Position numbers and translations under genes: made by a program. DNA of 64,000 nucleotides from Eledone cirrhosa (lineage: Eukaryota), in NCBI GenBank assembly GCA_964016885.1, contig OZ024740.1, positions 347,138,001 to 347,202,000 of the forward strand, in the 5' to 3' direction. The notes below the pieces were generated by a model, which saw nothing but the letters and a program-made list of their open reading frames with translations, made no database searches and had not been told where the DNA came from. The first letter of the stretch is position 1; the number at the start of each line of letters is the position of its first letter. This document shows, one piece after another, positions 4,870 to 62,059 of this stretch.

Positions 4870-7190
4870 TAGGTTGTGTGTGTTCTGAAGGTGGGGCTGC
4901 TGTGTTGTTTTTGAAGCGTCTAGATCTCACGATACTGAACAAGAAGATAAGTTGTCGGTGCTTGACATGACTGAAAGGGAAGTGACAGATTTCAGGCCAG
5001 TGGGCATGTACGTTCGACGGGGATATGCCGGCCTAATTTCTTCAAGCACCATGAAGACTTTCTAAGAACGTCTCACAATTTAGTGTTAGCGACCAGCTAG
5101 AAGGGTATCTGAAATGCACGCTGGTATTGTGTCGACCTCACAGGTATGATAGTAAGTAGTAAAAAACTGACAAGCCTGCTCTGATGCTTCCAATTCTGAC
5201 AGGTACCGACGAGATAATCCGAATGTGTCAATGGGGATATTGTCTAAGCGAATCAGTTCATCCAGAACGTAACTAAACAAAGTATTATGTCATAGCTGTC
5301 CACATTCCACAGTAGTAGACTACACACATCACACATTTGTAATATGTAGAATAAACTTAGAGATGCTTCATGGACAGGAAACCGGTCACTGGAAGCTGAA
5401 TTCTTCCTTTCCTGAGCGCAGAGCCTATATAACCCGGAGTAGTGAACTATTTAAGTAGGCATTGACCGGGCAAACATCAGAATCATATGGTGTTTCGCTC
5501 TGAAATTTTTGATAAGTTTAATATCAGAAAGGTTTAGTAAAAGTGTAGCGATAGAGAAAACTAAACTAAAGTTAGATCCAGTTAGAAAGCTAGAAGCGTT
5601 TACGAAAGTCCGTGCAACCGACGTGTTTACGGTGATATTGGCTTTCGACCAATTCTACAACGCGTAGATCGAATGCTGCTTTATCAGAGCTAGGGTGTGT
5701 CCTCTTAGACAGTAGGTGACGAACGTCGCTCATTGGATATAGTGGCGGAGACCTGGCACGGCAGAAAAAACACAATCCGGTCTTTGGTGGACCACATGGG
5801 ACGCATGTTATTCGATCCCAAACAAATGTGTGCGGCTTTGCAGCAACACTTCGCACAATAGTTCAAGATCTGTAGTGGGTTGGATCACGTGATGGACTTC
5901 GGTGTCTACCTCGGCACTCTGCCGCGGTTTTCTGATCCGGAGAGGAGTGTTGCGAAAACCAATAACAGCCGCTGAAATACAGGATGTGAGGACTAACTGT
6001 ATGAAGGGTAGGTCAGCAGGTTTGGATGGTCGGCCTTACACATTTTACGCTTACATACTGAAGTCTTGGTAGATGTATATTGCAATTGGCAGGAGAACGG
6101 GAGAATTCACAGAACTATTAGGTGAGAAGCGATGCCGCAGCTGAGAAAAGAAAGGAAGAAGGGGGAAATGTATAGGCTAAATGCAGTGTTCAAAATTTTG
6201 GCCAAGGTGTTGGTGATAAGGTTGGTGCTTGTCGTCGATGGTCAGGTACGGCAGATGCAAACAGGTGCCACGCCTAAAATATCCATCCACGACTCTATCT
6301 TCAACTTATACGATATGCGGTGGCTTAGTAACCTGGCTCATATGGGGGCCCTGATCAACTTAGATTAATAAAAAGTTTTCGATAGGGTCGCCCATCAAAT
6401 CTTGGCCGCAGTCATCAAGGCTGCAGGCTTTGGAAGCGTTTTCAGAGGCCAGATCACCGCAGTGCACAGCTGCATCTCCTCTGTAGTCAGAGTGAACGGT
6501 CAACACTCGGAGTCGTTCATTCTTAAGCCACTAATTCACAAATTGGAGACGCTGATGTGCACTCACGTGAACTGGAATGTGGGAGATATGTGTCAACATA
6601 TGCTAACAACGTCACCGTAGTGGTATCGAACACCAGCCATATTGTGATAATAGCACCTCTCTAAGGAACTATGGAGCGATAACTGAAGCGAGAATTTACC
6701 AGGTAGGAAACTCGAATGTCTTCAAGTGCTCATAGACCTGTGCCCATCGGACAAAGCGATCGATGAAATGTCTTCCTTGGCGTTCTATAAAGTGTTAATG
6801 GCGACTAATAGCGATAACGTTCTTGGGAAAATTTTGGGCGTCGACGGAAAACAAATAGCTATTATTTACCGGTGGACTTTCGGGCCAGTGCCCATATATA
6901 ACTTCTAGCGACCCCTGTCCTAGCTGCGCTAATGGAGAGTATCGTCTGTTCAAGATAAATACTACAGGCACGGAAGTACACTCAGCCGGGCCTTTCAGAG
7001 ATGCGCGCAAAGTGACGGAACCTTCCTGCATGCTCATGTTTTGTGTCAAAAACGTGTTGTCAGTTGTATGACAGATCCGTCTATTAGCTGAGTCCACCGT
7101 GAAGATCATCTTATCACGTAACTTTAGCCGGGCGTGTTTTATGTGCATATTGGCCACATTGAAAGACTTCAAATAAAGAAGCATTTGAAA
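4870..7190 (+). mobile_element. Decayed Tx1/L1-like LINE ORF2
   Basis: PGHWKLNSSF linker motif at ~5382; FKILAKVL and GALINLD..VFDRVAH RT motifs at 6190-6395; heavily disrupted. Confidence 0.65.
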
Positions 7191-12513: not shown

Positions 12514-16094
<3,581 letters not shown>

Positions 16095-16124
<30 letters not shown>

Positions 16125-17260
16125 TACGTATCAGTTTAGCGAACGTTTATTATAACGCCCGCTTTGTCCGTTTGTAAACAAACGGACAGCCTGATTTATG
16201 CCGTACGGTGTTAAGGCAACCATGTCACCTTTTTGTTCAACACTGACACAGGAACGATGTACTAGTTTCAAGCTTCTTAGCTATCATCAGGACCGTATAC
16301 CCTTTTGCCAGATGGTTGAACGTTCGAAAGTATATACTTTCCTTATAAAAATTAACGGCTGAGCAGCCTAATTTGCATATCGAGTGAGTTCAGTCGGCCA
16401 GGCGTACCTAAAACGATAAGTTGTAATAAAATGAAACGAAATTTCATTTCTCACTCTTAGTACGGCACTTACTTAAATGTAAGTATGTATGTATACGTAC
16501 ATACATATATGTATACAGACGTACAGTAGCATGCATATATATATATATATATATATACATATATACATACAGGTACACATATATATATGTACGTATAAGT
16601 TTAGCGAACGTTTATTATAACGCCCGCTTTGTCCGTTTGTAAACAAACGGACAGCCTGATTTATGCCGTACGGTGTTAAGGCAACCACGTCACCTTTTTA
16701 TTCAACACTGACACAGGAACGATGTACTAGTTGCATACTTCTTAGCTATCATCAGCACCGTATACCCTTCTGCCAGATGGTTGAACGTTCGAAAGTATAT
16801 ACTTTGCTTATGAAAATTAACGGCTGATTAGCCTAATTTGCATATCGAGTGAGTTCAGTCGGCCAGGCGTACCGAAAACGATAAGTTGTAATAGAATGAA
16901 ACGAAATTTCATTTCTCACTCTTAGTACGGCACTTACTTAAATGTAAGTATGTATGTATACGTACATACATATATGTATACAGACGTACAGTAGCATGCA
17001 TATATATATATATACATATATACATACAGGTAGCTATATATATATGTAAGTATCAGTTTAGCGGACGTTTATTATAACGCCCGCTTTGTCCGTTTGTAAA
17101 CAAACGGACAGCCAGATATGCGGTACGGTGTTAAGGCAACCACGTCACCTTTTTGTTCAACACTGACACAGGAACGACGTACTAGTTTCAAGCTTCTTAG
17201 CTATCATCATAATAATAAACGTCCGCTAAACTAATACGTACATATATATATCTGTACCTG

Positions 17261-21800: not shown

Positions 21801-23480
21801 ACAGGACAAAAATGGCAAGACGTTGACCACTGGAGCGGAACAGGAGCAGAGATGGATGGAGTACTTCCGGGAGACGCTGAACCAATGAAATCCGGTCGCC
21901 CTGAATGACATGAGCGCAGAGACTCCAGGAACCACTGAGGTACTCAAAGTCTGCGAGGACCTTATCACCAAGCAAGAGACGGGAGATGCGATTCGCCACT
22001 TGAGGAAGGGCAAAGCAGGCGGACTGGATGAGATCTCTGTGGAGCTGCTCAAATTCGGTGAGGAGAGCACGATAACGACTTGATGAACTACTGCTGGAAA
22101 GTTGGTTGGGTTCTCCTTGAGTGGCAGCGCGGTGTCATCGTCAAACTGCCGAAGAAGGGAATCCTGGCAGTCTGCAACAACTGGCGTGGTATCATATTGC
22201 GGTCACTTCCAGGCAAGGCGTTCTGCACTGTGCTGCTGCGTCGACTCCGGCAGGCTGTCGACTCTGTGCTCCTGGAGGAACAAGCAGGCTTTCGTAAAAA
22301 GCTATCCTGCACGGAACAGATCTTTACACTACGTAACATTCTCGAACAGTGCGTTGAGCAACAACAGCCTTTGGCGGTCAATTTTATTGATTTCCAGCAG
22401 GCATTCGACATACACCGGGAGTCGCTGTGTAATGTTGCACAATTGTACGGCATTCCTGCAAGATTCATCGCCATTTTCAAGGCCCTGTATGAAAACTCCA
22501 GCTGCTGCGTGCGGACTGAGTACGGTGTGACGGAGTTCTTTGACATTGTCTCTGGAGTCAGACAGGGTTGGATTCTCTCTACACTGTTGTTCCTGCTGGC
22601 AGCCGATTTCGTACTAAGGCGAATGGATGAAGGACCCGGTCGAGGAATCCCATGGAAAGGGCAGTCGTGGCTGAGGCAACTGGCATTCGCCGACGACATC
22701 GCTTTGATCTCTGAAAACAGTGCAGATCTGCAGGCTCTAATAACATCCCCACAAAAGAGTGCGGAAAATATCGGCCTGAGAATCAACACCAAAAAGACCA
22801 AGGTCATGAGAACGGCCAGCAACACAGGTCCAATGATCAGAGTCAAACAACAGGACCTCGAGGAAGTCGATCACTTCACCTATCTGGGCAGCATCCTGAC
22901 AAGCAGCACCGACGCGGAGCTCGACATCAACTGTCGGATCGGCAAAGGAGCCGAAGTTTTCCAGCGGTTGAGCCCAGTCTGGTCGTCATGCATTAGCACC
23001 AAGACCAAGCTCCGCCTGTACAAGAATATCGTGCCGCCGACAGTGCTTTTATGCGAGCGAGACCTGGAAGAGTACGGCAAAAATATAGAGACGGCTGAAC
23101 GCTTTCCACCAGCGGTGCCTGCGAAAGATCCTTCGTGTGTCCTGATGCGACCGAGTTCGAAACGAGGAGATCCTGTGGAGAGCCGAGTCGTGGACGCTAC
23201 AGAGAGTGGTCACAGAACATCGGTGCCGTCTGGCTGGCCATATTCTGCGTCTGCAAAATGAACGGCATTCGAAACCAGCGATGTACTGGACTCCGCCTGG
23301 CGGTAAACGGAGGCGGGGTTGCCCAAGGTTCACCTGGCGACGAACGTTCCGGAAGGACCTGATGGCAGTCAACATCACCTGGCACGGTCTCGAAACATTT
23401 GTCGCTGATCGTGACCGTTCGCAAGTACTTACTGCTCGATGCGCCGAACGGCGCGGAAGATTCTAAGACTAAAACTAAGA
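21801..23480 (+). mobile_element. 5'-truncated RTE-clade LINE with frameshifted RT
   Basis: ORF 22080-23261: KKG..CNNWRGI, EEQAGFR, FIDFQQAFD, GVRQG, FADD, FTYLGS. C-terminal GKRRRGCPRFTW; ctaag-repeat tail; (TA)n flanks. Confidence 0.9.
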
Positions 23481-37000: not shown

Positions 37001-38860
37001 TTAACATAATTATTAAACTTACACCAGGACATATGAGTCTGAGACATATTTCTCACCAGATTAATGACAACGGCTGGTATAGTAATTAATAGAGTAATAG
37101 ATATCCCAAGTCTTTTTTCAGCAAAACAATTTTAGTCTGTGTTATATCGTTAATTTGTTCTAAACAATAAATGAATGAATACTAACATATAATCTTCTTC
37201 CACTGATTCAGCGTTCAGAGAAATTTCCGCATAATGAGAGTTAGTAATATTTATAGATATTGAATGTATATTTTTATCAGAGAAATTCTGAAATCAAGAA
37301 TTCTCAATCCCCCCCCCCCCCCCCCCCCCCGAATCACAGGGAAAAAATGTGTAGGTAATGTCCAAGTTATTGCAAAAGTGATTATCTTCGAAATCTAGTT
37401 GGATAGATGTATACATTATCAATTTATCTTTTGTATAATTATAACCTCCCTTATTCGCAACATATATCTTCAAAAAATATTATATATATTCAAGAAATAT
37501 TTTGCTCGCTTAATCTTGTCACACATTCAGGCATACAATGCTAATAATGTTGTAGCTAGGACATAACTGATCGTTATATAATTTTCATAATCAATACAAT
37601 ACATTTTTCTTAAAGCATTGCAATAATAGCAAGTTGGTAAACCGAAGTGCAAAAAAATATTTCCTACCAGAGAAACAAAGAAACACCTCCAGCAAATATG
37701 AACATGAAAACCATACCTTGTTTAACAGTAACATACTTTAGCCACTCTATCATATTCTTTTTACACCATATAATATTATTAGCACTTTGGAAGATTCATC
37801 ATAAAAACCTTATATTGATTGCTCATATATTTTGTCAAAACTTCACGTAGACATTTACTTCAGATCATAAAACTACTCATGACAGTCATCTTCTTCGATA
37901 TGATGATGCAGCTTATATTTTTTCGTTACTTTGATAAAAACGAAGTTTCAGAAAAACATTTCTTCAAAGATACTTGTACTGTTTTATTCTCGTTTCATCC
38001 CTGGTATTTTACATTTCCCCGCAGTTTCTTGGCTGTTTCATATCCACGTTCGATTGCATTCTTCATTCTATTGAGTTTGTTTTTTCTCTTTTCCCATAAT
38101 GTTATCTGTCATCTATTTTTGTTTCCTTTTTTATCATATTTTTTTTCCATTGAATGAGTTGTCAGAAATATTGTGAATGTGTGTGTGTGTGTACGTTTGT
38201 ATATCAGCAAGGTTGTAGATATACAAATGAGTTACAACGGTCAGTAAAAGTAGTCTATAATGATAAATGCATAAAGCCAGGGCAGACAAATGCGATGTAT
38301 ACGATCGCCCTCTTGTATCCATGTTATGCTTCAGCGAAGATTTTCTTTTAAGAACGCCTCAAGTGCACAAAAAAAAATCGCTTCAAACATAAATGACGGA
38401 TTCAGCGATGGATAAGGGGTGTATGGAGATATGTGTCGGAATGTGAATGTCTGTGTGTTTGTGTGTCACCTATGTTTTGAGAAAATATTGTGATCGAACA
38501 TAAAATCAAGAAAAATATGGAATCAGTGAAAGTCGCTTTCAAACGAAATATAAAAGTATACTGTTCAGCGAATTTGAATGTCATCATAATTCAGAAAAAT
38601 AATTGAAGTGACCATACTCGCAACTAAGAGTAATATGTATATATATATATATATATAACTATGATGATAATAATAACAGTGTTGCAATTCATGGGTATAT
38701 ACTTAAGCAGAAGGTTTAAAGCTCTATACAGTAGGGTTCATGCAGATTTGATATATAAAGAATAATGGTGTTTATTATTCTTTACACACACACACACGCA
38801 GACATATATATATATATCCATACACACACACACACATATGTATATAAATATATATATATA

Positions 38861-39505
38861 TATAAAGAATAAATATATCTACCGACATATGTATACAGAT
38901 GCATACCTACGCTAGCAGATATATATGTTTTGTCTTAGTAACGTTGTAGTTCTATGCAGGGGAATGCAGAACAATTATATGAAAGACGTAAATAAGAAAG
39001 TTATGAAAATTGACTTACTAAGACAAAACATATATATCTGCTAGCGTAGGTATGCATCTGTATACATATGTCAGTAGATATATTAATTCTTTATATTCTA
39101 CTCCAAATTATTTGTTGAGCAAAATTTGCCAAATTACTACTGTGACTGCTAGTAGTGGCTAGGCTCTGTCTTAATAGCACCCCCACTCCAAGCTGGTTAA
39201 CCTCAGTGTCACGTGATTAATTCTTTTGAATTTGCCACTTGACCAAGAAGGCAGCGAATTTTTCAGTGGCTTAGAATCTAGCCCCGCTCGATTTTTTTGC
39301 TTTTTTCTATCCACTGAATTATTGTTATATAAGCTCCCAGTGTCCCCGCATTGCCTGGTGGCTTAGCTGAGAATAGACTCCCTGATGACGTAAGGCTTCT
39401 CTACAGGTATTACATAACTGTATTTATCCCCTTACAAAACTAATTAGTTGGAGTGAAATTTTAGTAAGTAAGTCAATTTTCATAACTTTGTTATTTACGT
39501 CTTTC

Positions 39506-39510
<5 letters not shown>
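38861..39510 (+). mobile_element. Circularly permuted ~530 nt HHR element with inverted junction copy
   Basis: Forward unit 39015-39510. The reverse complement of 38861-39021 joins the unit end to the unit start. HHR at 39377-39454: ACUCC CUGAUGA CGUAAGG..CCUUAC AAAAC UAAUUA GUU^ GGAGU. Confidence 0.8.
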
Positions 39511-39558
<48 letters not shown>

Positions 39559-39586
39559 CATATATATATATACATATGTATATATT

Positions 39587-39626
<40 letters not shown>

Positions 39627-39635
39627 TATATATAC

Positions 39636-39725
<90 letters not shown>

Positions 39726-39778
39726 GTATGGTTTTATAAATATGGTTTTATAAATATAGTTACCATTTATTAATATAT

Positions 39779-40085: not shown

Positions 40086-40154
40086 GCATATATACATATT
40101 TATATATATATGGAGGAAGTTGTAGTTTTCTTGAAGCATTGCGTAATGAGGTAT

Positions 40155-41896
40155 AAACGTTTGGAGTTAGAAGGCCAAAACAATGCAGGTATGGATATAG
40201 AATATAAATACAAATGCAAAAGATATTGCTGACAATTATTATTTTACCTTAAATTTATTTGAATATCCCTAATTTTCGAGATAATATCTCTTCTTCGGAG
40301 GGAAGTAAAAGGGGTTAATCCAGTGTTCTAATTAGCTTGCCAAGTCATGCTGACAGGAAATTGTATAGAAATTACATTGTATTTCTAATGTCAAAGAGTG
40401 AAGGTTAGGTGGATAAAGAGTTGTCTCCCTTTATAAAGTGATTTGGACATGTATGTTTAAGTGTGTGGGAGAAAACGTGAAGGTGTAAGCATGCGTGTGT
40501 TTGCGCGCGCGTGTGTGTGAGTGTGAGAGGATATGTTTATATGTAAATGTTGGGGCTAGATGCTTTATCATGTTAAAACTGCTCTTTGTGTGTGTATGTT
40601 TGTGTAGGAGAGGGAATAAGTGGAGGTGTAAGCGTGTGTGTGTGCGTGCGTGTGTGTGTGAGAGAGGGGGTATGTGGAGGTTAAGTGTGGGGCTAAGCGC
40701 TCTATCATGTTAAAAATTGGGTGTTGAGTTCTAGTCTGTTATTGATTGGTGGTTGCGATTTGTCTGTAATCAGTGCTTCTTTAATTTTAAGATTGCCGAG
40801 GTTTCTTTCCTTAGCTTCTATCCTAACTATTATGTTTTTGTCGGTGTTTCTGCATTTCACTAGGTGTTTCTTAAATGAGAAAGTGTTAGTATTGAGGTGT
40901 ACTTTTATTCTTATGTGAAGTGGTCTGGTGGTGCTAACTATGTAGAAATTGCTGCATTTGTCACACTCTAATCTGTACACGACGTAAGCCTGGTGGCATA
41001 GGTCTGTGTCGTTGATGGGGCAGTTGGCTAGCCTGCAGCGGTTGTCATGTCTGGTGGAGTGTCTTTTGGTTAGCTGTCCGGGTAGAGAAGGTCCTGAGTG
41101 GGCTAGTTGGATATCAAGTCCCTCTCGTCTGATAGCTCTGCGGATGGCTGTTGTTGTTTCGTCACTGATATACGGGAGCTTCAGGAAGCAAGTGTTAGTG
41201 CCTCGGGTGTGGTGTCCTCTGTTGTTTCTGGCACGGTTTAATGTAGTCGGGTATCCGTTCAGTTTAAGTACTTCCAGGAAATGTGTGGTGTGTGTGTCTT
41301 GGTCTCTTGCGTCGGTGCATTTGTTCCGGATACGTAGTTCGTTCCTTATGTATCCGAACTTAGCGCTGGCTGGGAGGGCCGATCTGAAATGTACGAACAG
41401 GTCCCTGCTGTCGGCTTTTTTATAGAAGCAGGTGTGGATGTCGCCCTTCTCTAGTACCCTGAGTTACTCAACTCAGGGTACCCGCTCTCACACACACACA
41501 CACCAGTTTTAACATGATAGAGCATCTAGCCCCCACATTTACATATAATCATATCCTCTCACATTCACACACACACACACATGCACACACACACGCATGC
41601 TTACACTTTCACGTTTCTCCCACTTACATGTCCAAACCCCCTTTTAAAGGGAGACAACTCTTTATCCACCTAACCTTCACTCTTTGACATCAGAAATAGA
41701 ATGTAATTTCTATACCATTTCCTGTAAGCATGACTTGGCAAGCTAATTACTTCCCTCCGAAGAAGAGATATTATCTCGAAAATTAAGGATATTCAAATAA
41801 ATTTAAGGTAAAAGACTAATTGTCAGCAATATCTTTTGCATTTGTATTTATATTCTATATCCATACCTGCATTGTTTTGGCCTTCTAACTCAAAAC

Positions 41897-41900
<4 letters not shown>
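40155..41900 (-). mobile_element. Penelope-like element fragment (RT thumb + GIY-YIG) with inverted pLTRs
   Basis: VYRLECDKCSNFYI.STTRPLHIRIK.H..IKEAL..PPINN (40705-40980). Inverted ends 40155-40590 and 41500-41900. HHR-like CCGAAGA agagatattatctc GAAA at 41751-41790 and 40266-40304. Confidence 0.85.
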
Positions 41901-41933
<33 letters not shown>

Positions 41934-42059
41934 TGCATATATACATTTATAAATATAGATACATATATATATATTTATATATATATACATATACATATAT
42001 ATATATATACATATATATATGCATATATATATGCATATATATATATGCATATATATATA

Positions 42060-57262: not shown

Positions 57263-59933
57263 CTAGCAGTGTTTCTCGGCGTTGCACGGGTAAACATTGG
57301 TAATAGCACCTCCAATGAGAAACGTTTATTTGTGAGTGCCTGTTAAAAACTCACGAAAATATACCGACAGGAAACTTGTTTTATCTGGAGAAAATTAAGA
57401 AGTTGAAAGTACAGTTCAGCTGTCTACGTGCATTGTTCATAGAAATATTGTTGAGCCCCTTCTTTTCATACTCCTCTGTTTTGGCCTATTAGAGTAAATG
57501 TGAAAGAGAAGGTCACAGGTTAAGTTGGCAGAAGGTTCCAGTGTCATAGCAGTAAGGCATAGGCTACTTACCTCAGAAGTTCATTCGCACTCTTGTCACT
57601 AAGTAACTATTTCTCTCTATCCCTCTCGGTGCAGTCCCTTGCGAATTTCTCGCGTAGGCCTGGTGTAGATTTGCACGCCATCCATCTGCCCGATGCTCAT
57701 GTCCGCTTTGTACGGCTTTTGGAGGAAGGAGTGACCAGCAGTACGTAGTTCGGTATTATTACGAAAAGGTGTAGCAGATAATCTCGCGTGAACTAAGAAG
57801 AAACTGCTTACATCGAAGATTCATTCGCCCTCGTTCTTGTCAACGCTCCGTTTAGTTGGTATTTGTTGGTCTACAGTTAGATGAATGGCGCACAATGGGT
57901 TAATGTCGTTGGTGAGAAGTGGCAACCGGGCTGGCTTGCCTCGCTTATATTATATATTAAAATAATAGATTAAAGTTTAAGCAAAGAATCGCTGCTTTCA
58001 CCCTTAACGGGATATTCTGAAACTAAAAAAATCAATCTATGAACGCAGTGGTACCCGGCGTTAAACGGGATAAGGTATTTTTGAACGCGGGCCGCCAACA
58101 GACCTAATTGTGGAAAAATTGCATTCCTGGACAATATGTAAAGAAAATAAACCGAATACTCTGATGGCTGGATAAACTTTAAGATTTTCCTCGATGAAGC
58201 AGGAAAAATACAGGTTTTCACCTAATGCGGGCCCTAAGGGATCAAGAAAATGAATTTTTTTATGTGCATAATATGCCTTAAAATTTCGGGAAAATCGGCT
58301 AGACGTATCGCCTCAAAAAAAGGCTTAAAAAGCTGAAAAAATTAAGTTTTTCACCTAATACGGGCCATAAAAAAGCTGGATTTCTTTGCTCACGGTATGA
58401 AGACGTGACTGACTAATAGATAGGTACAATTTCAATGAAATGGGTCTGACTTAACGCCTCAAAAAAGACCCTAAAATGCTGAAAAAAACGCAGTTTTTCA
58501 CCTAATGCGGGCCCCAGGCCATAGAAAAGTTGGATTTTCTTTGCTCACGGTATGAAGAAGAGACTGACTAATACATTTTACAATTTCAAGGAAATCGGTC
58601 TGACGTAACGTCTCAAAAAAACCCTAAAAAGCTGAAAAACGCAGTTTTTCACCTAATACGGGTGCTAGGGGATCAAAAGGTTGACTTTTTATGTGCATAA
58701 CACTCCCTGAAACATAAGTAATACACATGTAAAGTTTGAAAAAATTCGGTTGGGTACACCTCACACACACACACATACATACACACGTACATACATACAT
58801 ACATACATACATACATACGAGGTGGCTGCCAACTCGTTTTCGAGTACGGCCACTACTTTATATCCATGTAGGAGAACCCCTACCCATGCACTGAACAAGT
58901 GTGACTTTTTAGTCTAGCCAGCGACTTGAAAACTCTGGTACAAACACTACACTTGTGACAATTATTGACACATAGTGCTGGACCCATGGTACCATGTGAT
59001 GACAAGTGCAGAGAGATCTTCAGATACAAAGCAATGCCTGTGCCATGAAGCTTTTATAGTGAGCAAGGGCACTGCACAAAGCCAGTCCAACTCTCTTAAC
59101 CAAGATGATATTTACCAAAAAGAAGAACAAGTCAACATCATTGGATACCATCAAGGTTGCAGGTGTTATATCAGAGTTTTCCTTCTCCTAGAAATCTGCC
59201 TTGACAAAGGCTAATGGGTCATCTCTCCCGGTGATTTTGGATGGCCATTGACTCTTAAGAGCTCCTTTGCCCTTTGACAGGTTTTGTTTTTAGTCCTGCG
59301 GGATGTTCAAAGTCACCCTCCTCACCAAGAAACCTTGGTGGGGTTGCCAGTTTAGTCGCCAACGAACCGACCATGAAACAGGTTGTACTGGGATACATTT
59401 TACCAGTAGCACCATACACACATACATCCTTCCTCAGTTTTATATATATACATATATAGATTAAAATAACAGATTAAAGTTTAAGCAAAGAATAGTTGCT
59501 TTCACCCTTAACGGGATCTTCTGAAACTAAAAACATCAATCTGTGAACGCAGAAGTAAATATTTCGAAAAACGTTGCAACCGAAGGAAAACAGGAAGACG
59601 ATACTTTGGTTCGTGAAGACGTTGCTTGGCAATGAGCGGAAAATTAATATAGCGAACATAATACGTCATCAATGTTCGTCAGAATGTCGTAATGAAGACT
59701 GCCAAGCATACAGACAGATATTATAAGAGCGCTATGGAGATGGATAACCGGCGCCTATCACCCCCTTTAACAAAAGAAAATTGAAAAATAAAAGCTGCAG
59801 TTAATATATATAGACCGCAAGGAATGTATAAATGCAAGTTTGAAGTCAATCGGAGTAGAAATGTGGATTTTATAGACTTTGCAAAAATGAGGACACACAC
59901 ACACACAGACAACAACAGTTTTATATATATAGA
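57263..59933 (-). mobile_element. Composite non-autonomous Helitron-like element(s) with internal minisatellite
   Basis: 3' hairpin + CTAG at 57263-57290; 5' TCTATATATATAAAAC at 59933; ~130-150 bp repeats (gtttttcacctaat.cggg) at 58210-58750; internal duplication 57956/59460, also present at 14174. Confidence 0.5.
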
Positions 59934-60861: not shown

Positions 60862-61988
60862 CAGGGTCAAGCAAATTGAGAAAAAGTTTTAAAGTAAATT
60901 TTAAAAAATTCACTGTACTTACTATATGTGCCTTTTCCGCGGTTTCCGATCCCAAAATAAATAGATAATCCAAGCGGAATTACATTGAGAAAGAGATCAT
61001 CAGGAGGCTTTTCTCACTCGGAGAATATAAAATTCTCGAGTTCAAATCACAAACTGGCGCCACACAAACCTGTTCCCGAATGAGAGTGAATGAGAGAAGA
61101 AACAATTCTGTCTGGTACCGTGTGGAAAGACAAAGACTAGGTGGACACGTCAATGTACTGCTATTAAAAATAGCAGCCGTTCAAACGACCAAAGTTTTCT
61201 CTACCGTAGGGGAGAATAATAATAAAAGTATGTATTCCTACATCTAAATGTTCTGGCTTGTTAATTTATTAACTTGCCATTTAACCACACTGGCATACGG
61301 TTGGAAAATAATTGTACCCCTATGTGTATTATTTAAATGTAGGAATACATACTTTTATTATTATTCTCCCCTACGGTACAGAAACCTTTGGTCGTTTGAA
61401 CGGCTGATAATTTTAGTAGTAGTACATTGACCTGTCCACCTAGCATTTGTCTTTGCACACGGTACCATACAGAATTGTTTCTTCTCTCATTCACTCTCAT
61501 TCAGGAACAGTTTTGTGTGGCGCCAGTTTGTGATTTGAACTCGAGAATTTTATATTCTCCGAGTGAGAAAAGCCTTCTGACGATGATCTCTTTCCTAATG
61601 TAAATCCGCTTGGATTATCTATTTATTTTGGGATCGGAAACCGCGGTGGAGGCACGTATAGTAAGTACCGTCAATATTTTGAAATTTATTTTAAAACATT
61701 TTCCCTAGTTGCTTGACCTTGATTTTATATGTTCTGGCTTGTTAATTTATTAACTTGCCATTGAACCACACTGGTATATGGTTGGAAAATACTTGTAACC
61801 TTATGTGTATTATTTACATGTAGGAATAGATACTTATTTTAACACTTTTTCTCTATTTGCTTGACCTTGATTTTATATATTCTGGCTTGTTAATTTATTA
61901 ACTTGCCATTGAACCACACTGGCATAAGGTTGGAAAATACTTGTAACCCTATGTGTATTATTTACTTGTAGGGAAATACATACTTTTA

Positions 61989-61992
<4 letters not shown>
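60855..61992. mobile_element. Family D palindrome + tandem (481 bp period) with two HHRs
   Basis: HHR 61572-61653(+): GCCUU CUGACGA UGAUCUC..GGGAUCG GAAAC CGCG GUG GAGGC; mirror 60930-61008(-); ttctggcttg anchors at 61251/61732. Confidence 0.85.

Positions 61993-62059
<67 letters not shown>

Follow-up and report, generated by a model that had tools for sequence, protein, structure and literature searches.

Published insertions of Penelope-like elements (PLEs) display 5′ truncation, partial tandems, and an adjacent inverted copy, with a tail of 30–40 bp that is often found at one end only (PMC8557442, PMC3846280). In vitro, the tail corresponds to the stretch between two internal priming sites, and an anole PLE takes unprocessed RNA as its main substrate (PMC11167929). 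For the non-LTR retrozymes of metazoans, in turn, mobilisation by PLEs via circular RNA has been proposed (PMC7229834, 10.64898/2026.07.22.740005)—in coral, mussel, and axolotl they occur as circles in vivo (PMC7229834)—and a recent preprint derives them from PLE pLTRs on the grounds of co-occurrence and phylogeny (10.64898/2026.07.22.740005). A further source, in its accessible part, counts hammerheads in a squid assembly only (PMC6962438). Two questions are open in this literature: are animal retrozymes really mobilised by the enzymes of PLEs, and do hammerheads of the PLE type cut in vivo and supply the cycle with circles?

The locus described here lies in a 64,000-nt stretch of the Eledone cirrhosa genome (assembly GCA_964016885.1, contig OZ024740.1), which we refer to in its entirety as the window; the genome is 3.0 Gb in size and rich in microsatellites. 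By self-BLAST and mapping onto a natural dimer, positions 38860–39510 of the window resolve into a head-to-head pair of arms, each running out into (TA)n. Monomer coordinates are those of a reference taken from this natural head-to-tail dimer in locus L025, which has a 530-nt period and on which the predicted ribozyme cut falls at 353/354, one 3′ end (A) at 414, and the other (B) at 530. The features of the locus are as follows:

38838..38864, no strand: (TA)n target tract at end B, read from the sequence
38860..39019, minus strand: inverted, 5′-truncated arm, monomer 371–530, ending at the distal 3′ end B (tailed) in (TA)n
38942..38975, minus strand: the 34 nt missing from the forward arm, monomer 415–448, first part of the 116-nt A–B tail
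39015..39019, no strand: head-to-head junction overlap (microhomology) of 5–7 nt, from self-BLAST
39015..39510, plus strand: forward, 5′-truncated arm of 496 nt, monomer 449–530 and then 1–414, ending at the proximal 3′ end A (untailed) in (TA)n
39506..39730, no strand: (TA)n target tract at end A, read from the sequence

A sequence-only reading of this stretch had described the inverted segment as the end of a unit, 34 additional nucleotides, and the start of the unit, and self-BLAST and dimer mapping agree at 38860–39019. As its reverse complement, the inverted arm (L001 1276–1435; 98.1% identical to the reference monomer) begins with the last 44 nt of the forward unit (43/44 identical) and continues through the 34 nt into the first 82 nt of the forward arm at 97.6% identity, followed by (TA)n. 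The forward arm (L001 1431–1926; 96.8% identical to the reference) passes through site B at 39096. Since the 34 nt do not occur in the forward arm, the inverted arm was not copied from that arm's DNA; they are merely the portion of the 116-nt tail that the forward arm lacks. The forward unit had also been drawn from 39015 to 39510, and while its end in (TA)n stands, its 5′ start does not: only 1 of 114 sampled arms begins at monomer 445–453, where the window's forward arm begins (at 449), and 39015 is thus a random 5′ truncation and not the start of an element. Taken alone, the window locus is an ordinary decayed copy with a broken ribozyme.

Two local features accompany the pair. A perfect 15-nt direct repeat (38751–38765 and 38858–38872), which includes a base private to the inverted arm, places the B end of that arm a second time in the flank, 107 nt upstream. 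A strong hairpin is predicted just before end B (38885–38925 on the minus strand, 39028–39083 on the plus strand; monomer ~462–517), and is a candidate recognition element for priming at B.

By exact-pattern counts, the window element is one among thousands of copies of a 530-nt non-coding element with a putative hammerhead motif. A DNA search of the species' own genome gave 2,940 candidates, of which 40 were scored, the best being 95–100% identical, and exact patterns place the lower bound for intact ribozyme sites at no fewer than 3,338 genome-wide (2,713 and 625 in two sequence variants). We mapped 47 top-hit loci and, in positional order, 70 loci from the first 91 Mb of contig C1, the latter set being conditional on an intact ribozyme site and including one duplicate of a top-hit locus. 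The junction of unit end, 34 nt, and unit start extends for at least 200 nt in direct, head-to-tail orientation in 27 of the 47 top-hit loci and 32 of the 70 positional loci; its recurrence in so many other copies means that the junction is not due to chance and that the permuted monomer is real. In this respect the sequence-only reading fared well—its estimate of a ~530-nt permuted monomer with one hammerhead matches the period measured directly in L025 and the single type I motif per monomer, and the other genomic copies did not turn out to be a fixed linear element with these segments apart. Its suggestion of a template longer than one unit, or an equivalent, is likewise in keeping with arms that cross one (66/114), two (24/114), or three (3/114) ribozyme sites, so that 27 of the sampled arms are partial tandems spanning two or three. 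Permutation of the ends applies on one side only: 5′ starts vary, whereas 3′ ends are fixed at two sites. Random 5′ truncation and (TA)n after both A and B recur across the mapped copies, the (TA)n target masking target-site duplications, and subfamilies down to ~70% identity share this layout.

Dimer translation and arm maps show the element to be non-coding and without an LTR; six-frame translation and tblastn of the natural dimer gave no ORF or PLE protein match, and the RT/GIY-YIG ORF required of an autonomous PLE is absent from the element. These results bear on the proposal that the copies are mere truncated 3′ ends (pLTRs) of a coding PLE. All of the hallmarks are indeed those of PLE ends, and most PLE copies are described as 5′-truncated. 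Yet every long arm is preceded by another monomer and not by an ORF (reaching 1,525 nt among the positional loci and ~2,050 nt in L160), the dimer is devoid of PLE protein matches, and one locus that adjoins a PLE, L205/L260, involves a PLE family with unrelated ends. With two coding PLE families examined, we consider the pLTR explanation very unlikely.

The 3′ ends of arms are fixed at A or B, 116 nt apart, with TA following each. Among 75 head-to-head pairs (not counting L146, a duplicate of L020), 59 had both ends classifiable and 16 had a damaged or atypical end; all 59 classifiable pairs joined an A end to a B end, with no A+A and no B+B, and the closest to an exception was L222, whose ends fall at B and 12 nt past B. 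Microhomology of 1–18 nt was found at most young junctions. The same architecture, with (TA)n ends at two sites ~40 nt apart, was seen in two coding PLE families of this genome, and in the coding PLE loci L092 and L093 the two ends are unlike. The inversion had been read as the footprint of a circular template; it is instead the known head-to-head insertion of PLEs, as published, with the tail at one end. The tail itself, at 116 nt, falls outside the 30–40 bp usual for PLEs.

How the two arms came about can be narrowed further. In 24 of the 59 classifiable pairs, the window pair included, each arm has sequence missing from the other, and the remaining 35 are nested. Fold-back of the first cDNA (snap-back) could in principle produce the inverted arm, as could an inversion or duplication of DNA after insertion; self-priming has been proposed in the literature for PLE inverted repeats, and both the junction microhomology and the nested pairs are compatible with it. 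The non-nested pairs, however, mean that neither arm was copied from the other, which rules out fold-back on one cDNA as a general route and indicates two primings on RNA. Moreover, the outer ends are fixed and in every classifiable pair one is A and the other B, and at the window locus the 34 nt contradict fold-back directly, making this origin highly improbable. In the LINE-type twin priming model, a second primer anneals at a variable internal site near the point where the first cDNA stops. Acting on a SINE-like RNA, twin priming would give an inverted 5′ arm and junction microhomology, and fragments of RTE and other LINEs are present in the window; against it, the inverted arm has a fixed outer end, A or B, wherever its partner was truncated, the arms overlap in sequence by up to ~500 nt, and poly(A) is lacking. 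We regard this model as barely credible, and return below to priming at A and at B by a PLE enzyme.

The ribozyme motif of the window copy lies in the forward arm:

39377..39454, plus strand: type I hammerhead, predicted cut between 39449 and 39450
39377–39381 with 39450–39454, plus strand: stem I
39382–39388, plus strand: CUGAUGA
39390–39395 to 39430–39435, plus strand: long stem II
39440–39447, plus strand: palindromic stem III

Across the family, the motif combines CUGAUGA and GAAA with three stems (a 5-bp stem I that is extended, a long stem II, and a palindromic stem III) and has GUU as its cut triplet. The window copy is without the G (G12) of the conserved GAAA that is present in the family, and its ribozyme is predicted to be inactive. 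Among 17 diverged copies, two-sided changes affect six pairs of stem II, and 91.6% of stem II cells are paired, compared to 35–46% for slid controls; three of five whole-structure covariation measures exceed all 500 shuffles and the other two do not (172/500 and 373/500), and no two-sided changes were found in stems I and III of these copies. The stem III palindrome gives a 10-bp self-duplex. Rfam made no hammerhead call, either on the window at gathering score or on an intact copy by E-value, and free folding of the window's ribozyme region (z = −1.07) did not recover the hammerhead fold.

Arms that stop at the predicted cut offer a view of whether the motif is active. A pattern for arms starting at 354 has 31 matches genome-wide, and the 30 inspected comprise 25 true 5′ ends (at 22 loci), three junctions in L080, and two small mutations; at control positions, true 5′ ends numbered 5/18 (337), 4/6 (350), and 2/5 (357). 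The 25 arms beginning at the cut compare with ~4 expected, a 6.1-fold excess (p = 2e-7) that falls to 3.2–3.6-fold (p = 0.001–0.005) without the 10 arms of a subfamily invisible to two of the controls. For 3′ ends the excess is not clear—three arms end exactly at 353, alongside two deletions, among eight matches, and the one control gave one end and one deletion among five. Nine of the 22 loci have both arms stopping at the cut, with spacers of 0–3 nt in eight of these nine, the search pattern somewhat favouring such double-stop fusions. With a stop rate of 1–2%, double stops would be rare if the two RNAs were independent, and a single RNA, or two cut together in a dimer, would thus be the likelier template. 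These arms are likely a trace of ribozyme cutting in living cells.

A pile-up of 5′ ends at 354 might also reflect a transcription start or a structural pause. A TATA-like stretch lies 22–28 nt upstream in some subfamilies, and PLE promoters are placed by the literature in the pLTR; on the other hand, hammerhead geometry predicts this very base, which shifts together with the cut in a subfamily that has one added G after it. The extra G seen at cut junctions, which could have been mistaken for a cap trace, is mostly this subfamily's own base. A start or pause is an unlikely source of the pile-up.

We consider it probable that the window element is a non-LTR retrozyme insertion, likely copied into (TA)n by a PLE reverse transcriptase/GIY-YIG endonuclease. 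The observations behind this proposal are the monomer, the motif with its covarying stem II, the dispersed copies, (TA)n, truncation, tandems, the A and B ends with their strict pairing, and the excess of 5′ ends at the cut. Tandem genomic copies would be transcribed, and the hammerhead would cut some of the junctions, probably as a dimer formed via the palindromic stem III; the PLE enzyme would then nick both strands of a TA tract and prime two cDNAs, at A and at B respectively and likely from a single RNA, and these truncated cDNAs would be fused head to head, either through microhomology or bluntly.

Whether the template is a circle or a linear multimer is a separate matter. The more far-reaching version, in which the copies form a fossil record of a whole life cycle—cutting in vivo, circle closure, and a PLE dimer priming both strands at A and B and rolling round the RNA—is one that we hold tentatively, at a little below even chances. 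If true, the copies would be direct evidence, at the genomic level, that retrozymes are transposed by PLEs from circular templates and that the ribozyme is active within a PLE-type cycle whose tail is three times as long as usual. The same element and enzyme could also operate with no circle, on linear read-through transcripts that are partly cut by the ribozyme and with occasional end-to-end template jumps, a possibility to which we likewise give somewhat less than an even chance. Arms that stop at the cut with short spacers resemble run-off at a free 5′ end, three arms have a 3′ end that coincides with the cut, genomic arrays of 3–4 units occur and are possible sources, and the preference of the anole PLE for unprocessed RNA in vitro (PMC11167929) points in the same direction. 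In addition, five arms of 591–592 nt (L104, L105, L107, L114, and L116) pass one site and stop at the next, for which a partly cut linear multimer is a simple explanation; template jumping, or stalling at a ligation scar, fits as well.

Against an exclusively linear route stand the circular retrozymes of coral, mussel, and axolotl (PMC7229834), the consideration that a ligation scar could stall the enzyme at the same base, and one locus in particular. In L080, positions 281–353 have been removed and 280 is joined to the cut base, with loss of the ribozyme core; this private junction occurs three times in one insertion—in both passes of the direct arm and in the inverted arm—and in no other locus among the 30 inspected matches. 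For L080, a single locus, the best explanation is that one trimmed monomer was copied repeatedly, either closed into a circle or by jumps from end to end, and a route with no circle needs a repeatedly copied monomer-length RNA, or a source array since lost. The argument for a circle comes from L080 alone. Divergence within insertions is 3.5% (70 tandem segment pairs) and 2.9% (94 arm pairs), compared to medians of 10.1% and 8.1% to other loci and 3.1% and 2.5% to the nearest outside copy, respectively; as it is not below the latter, these values indicate templates of the same subfamily only and single out no one-molecule template. Shared indels did not separate circle from multimer either. Most cDNAs pass the cut site, meaning that templates usually carry junctions that are uncut or have been rejoined, and cut linear RNA also appears to serve as template in roughly 1–2% of passages. 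That a religated monomer circle templates a real share of insertions is, in our estimation, evenly balanced. The window locus is compatible with both circle and linear multimer, and the family shows both cut linear ends and repeated monomer copying.

Neither of the two coding PLE families examined (900-aa and 796-aa, both encoding RVT_1 and GIY-YIG) shares DNA with the monomer. Intact copies of the 900-aa family occur in 3,127-bp tandems elsewhere in the genome, and the family carries a minimal hammerhead-like motif with the core CCGAAGA instead of CUGANGA, located ~120 nt upstream of the first 3′ end (window ~40270–40305, minus strand; L091 ~5590–5630). The window also holds a separate, decayed head-to-head insertion of this family (40112–41465, minus strand, and 41485–41949, plus strand; ~80% and ~70% identical to intact copies, respectively), in which the C-terminal portion of the ORF lies at 40705–41460. 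The 796-aa family, found in L261–L274, is young, and a second long open frame lies ahead of its RT/GIY-YIG frame (455 aa in L265; in L267, there is one 1,289-aa frame). Its long 3′ UTR is filled with microsatellites, and no canonical hammerhead core was seen near its ends; from the cysteine motif in the linker, we take it to be Neptune-like. At the L205/L260 locus (L205 1131–1193), a piece of the monomer tail (417–479) is joined directly to a 5′-truncated copy of this family, the PLE fragment sitting opposite a monomer arm that ends at A; the chimera may be a template switch or a nested insertion.

Several other features were noted in the flanks of these loci and in the window. Unrelated CUGANGA...GAAA motifs with a palindromic stem III occur in the flanks of L262, L267, L268, L269, L271, and L275, which suggests further PLE or retrozyme families in TA tracts. 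The window contains a degenerate non-LTR reverse transcriptase frame at 22062–23261 on the plus strand (RVT_1, E 1e-25), along with tandems at 16065–17209 (465 bp), 12740–12987 (123 bp), 58292–58662 (154 bp), and 61686–62028 (148 bp).

Among described systems, the metazoan non-LTR retrozymes (Cervera and de la Pena 2020, PMC7229834; Li, Clavereau and Pollet 2026 preprint, 10.64898/2026.07.22.740005) are likewise non-coding, low-GC tandem monomers with one type I hammerhead, dispersed as monomers to multimers. The monomer is 530 nt here, against 220–390 nt (PMC7229834) and 51–972 nt (10.64898/2026.07.22.740005), and for retrozymes the accessible text of these two sources contains nothing on head-to-head arms, a pair of fixed 3′ ends, targeting of (TA)n, or cut-site 5′ ends. 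Expression and circularity have been shown for those retrozymes (PMC7229834, 10.64898/2026.07.22.740005), whereas the 530-nt element is known here from genomic copies alone. Within the literature searched, no description of the 530-nt family or of 5′ ends at a PLE-type hammerhead cut was found; the family may already be named in supplements or in Repbase or Dfam.

Endonuclease-bearing PLEs (Penelope/Poseidon, Neptune, Nematis, and Naiad; PMC8557442, PMC3846280) are alike in truncation, tandems, the inverted copy, the single tail, the preference for (TA)n, and a hammerhead near the 3′ end. Unlike them, the 530-nt element has no ORF, its tail measures 116 nt and not 30–40, and the pairing of tailed and untailed ends is strict (59/59) where these sources say "often" or "optionally." The hammerheads of PLEs that have a short palindromic helix III and act as dimers (Cervera and de la Pena 2014, PMC4209133) share the common type I topology, the palindromic helix III, an extra base after position 9, and the G10.1–C11.1 pair; in contrast to these minimal motifs, the Eledone element has a stem II of ~48 nt with an internal loop and an extended stem I. 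With the Anolis Poseidon element PAc in vitro (Frangieh et al. 2024, PMC11167929), it has in common an AT-rich target and, on the proposed mechanism, a tail set by two internal priming sites downstream of the hammerhead, cutting and extension of both target strands, and use of mostly uncut RNA. PAc starts at sites non-homologous to the cut DNA, whereas both ends here share TATA-like bases with the target, and that study found none of its RNA-seq reads to end at the ribozyme cut (PMC11167929), a position at which genomic arms do stop in Eledone.

The family bears on both of the questions raised at the outset, through its strict tailed/untailed pairing, its cut-site 5′ ends, and one repeated private junction, and it provides a small non-coding substrate for tests with PLE proteins of the same genome. 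Overall, the element fits the non-LTR retrozymes, and its insertion is PLE-like in every tested respect except tail length; the locus is thus mostly explained by known PLE and retrozyme biology, and the family-level evidence is new within the literature searched.
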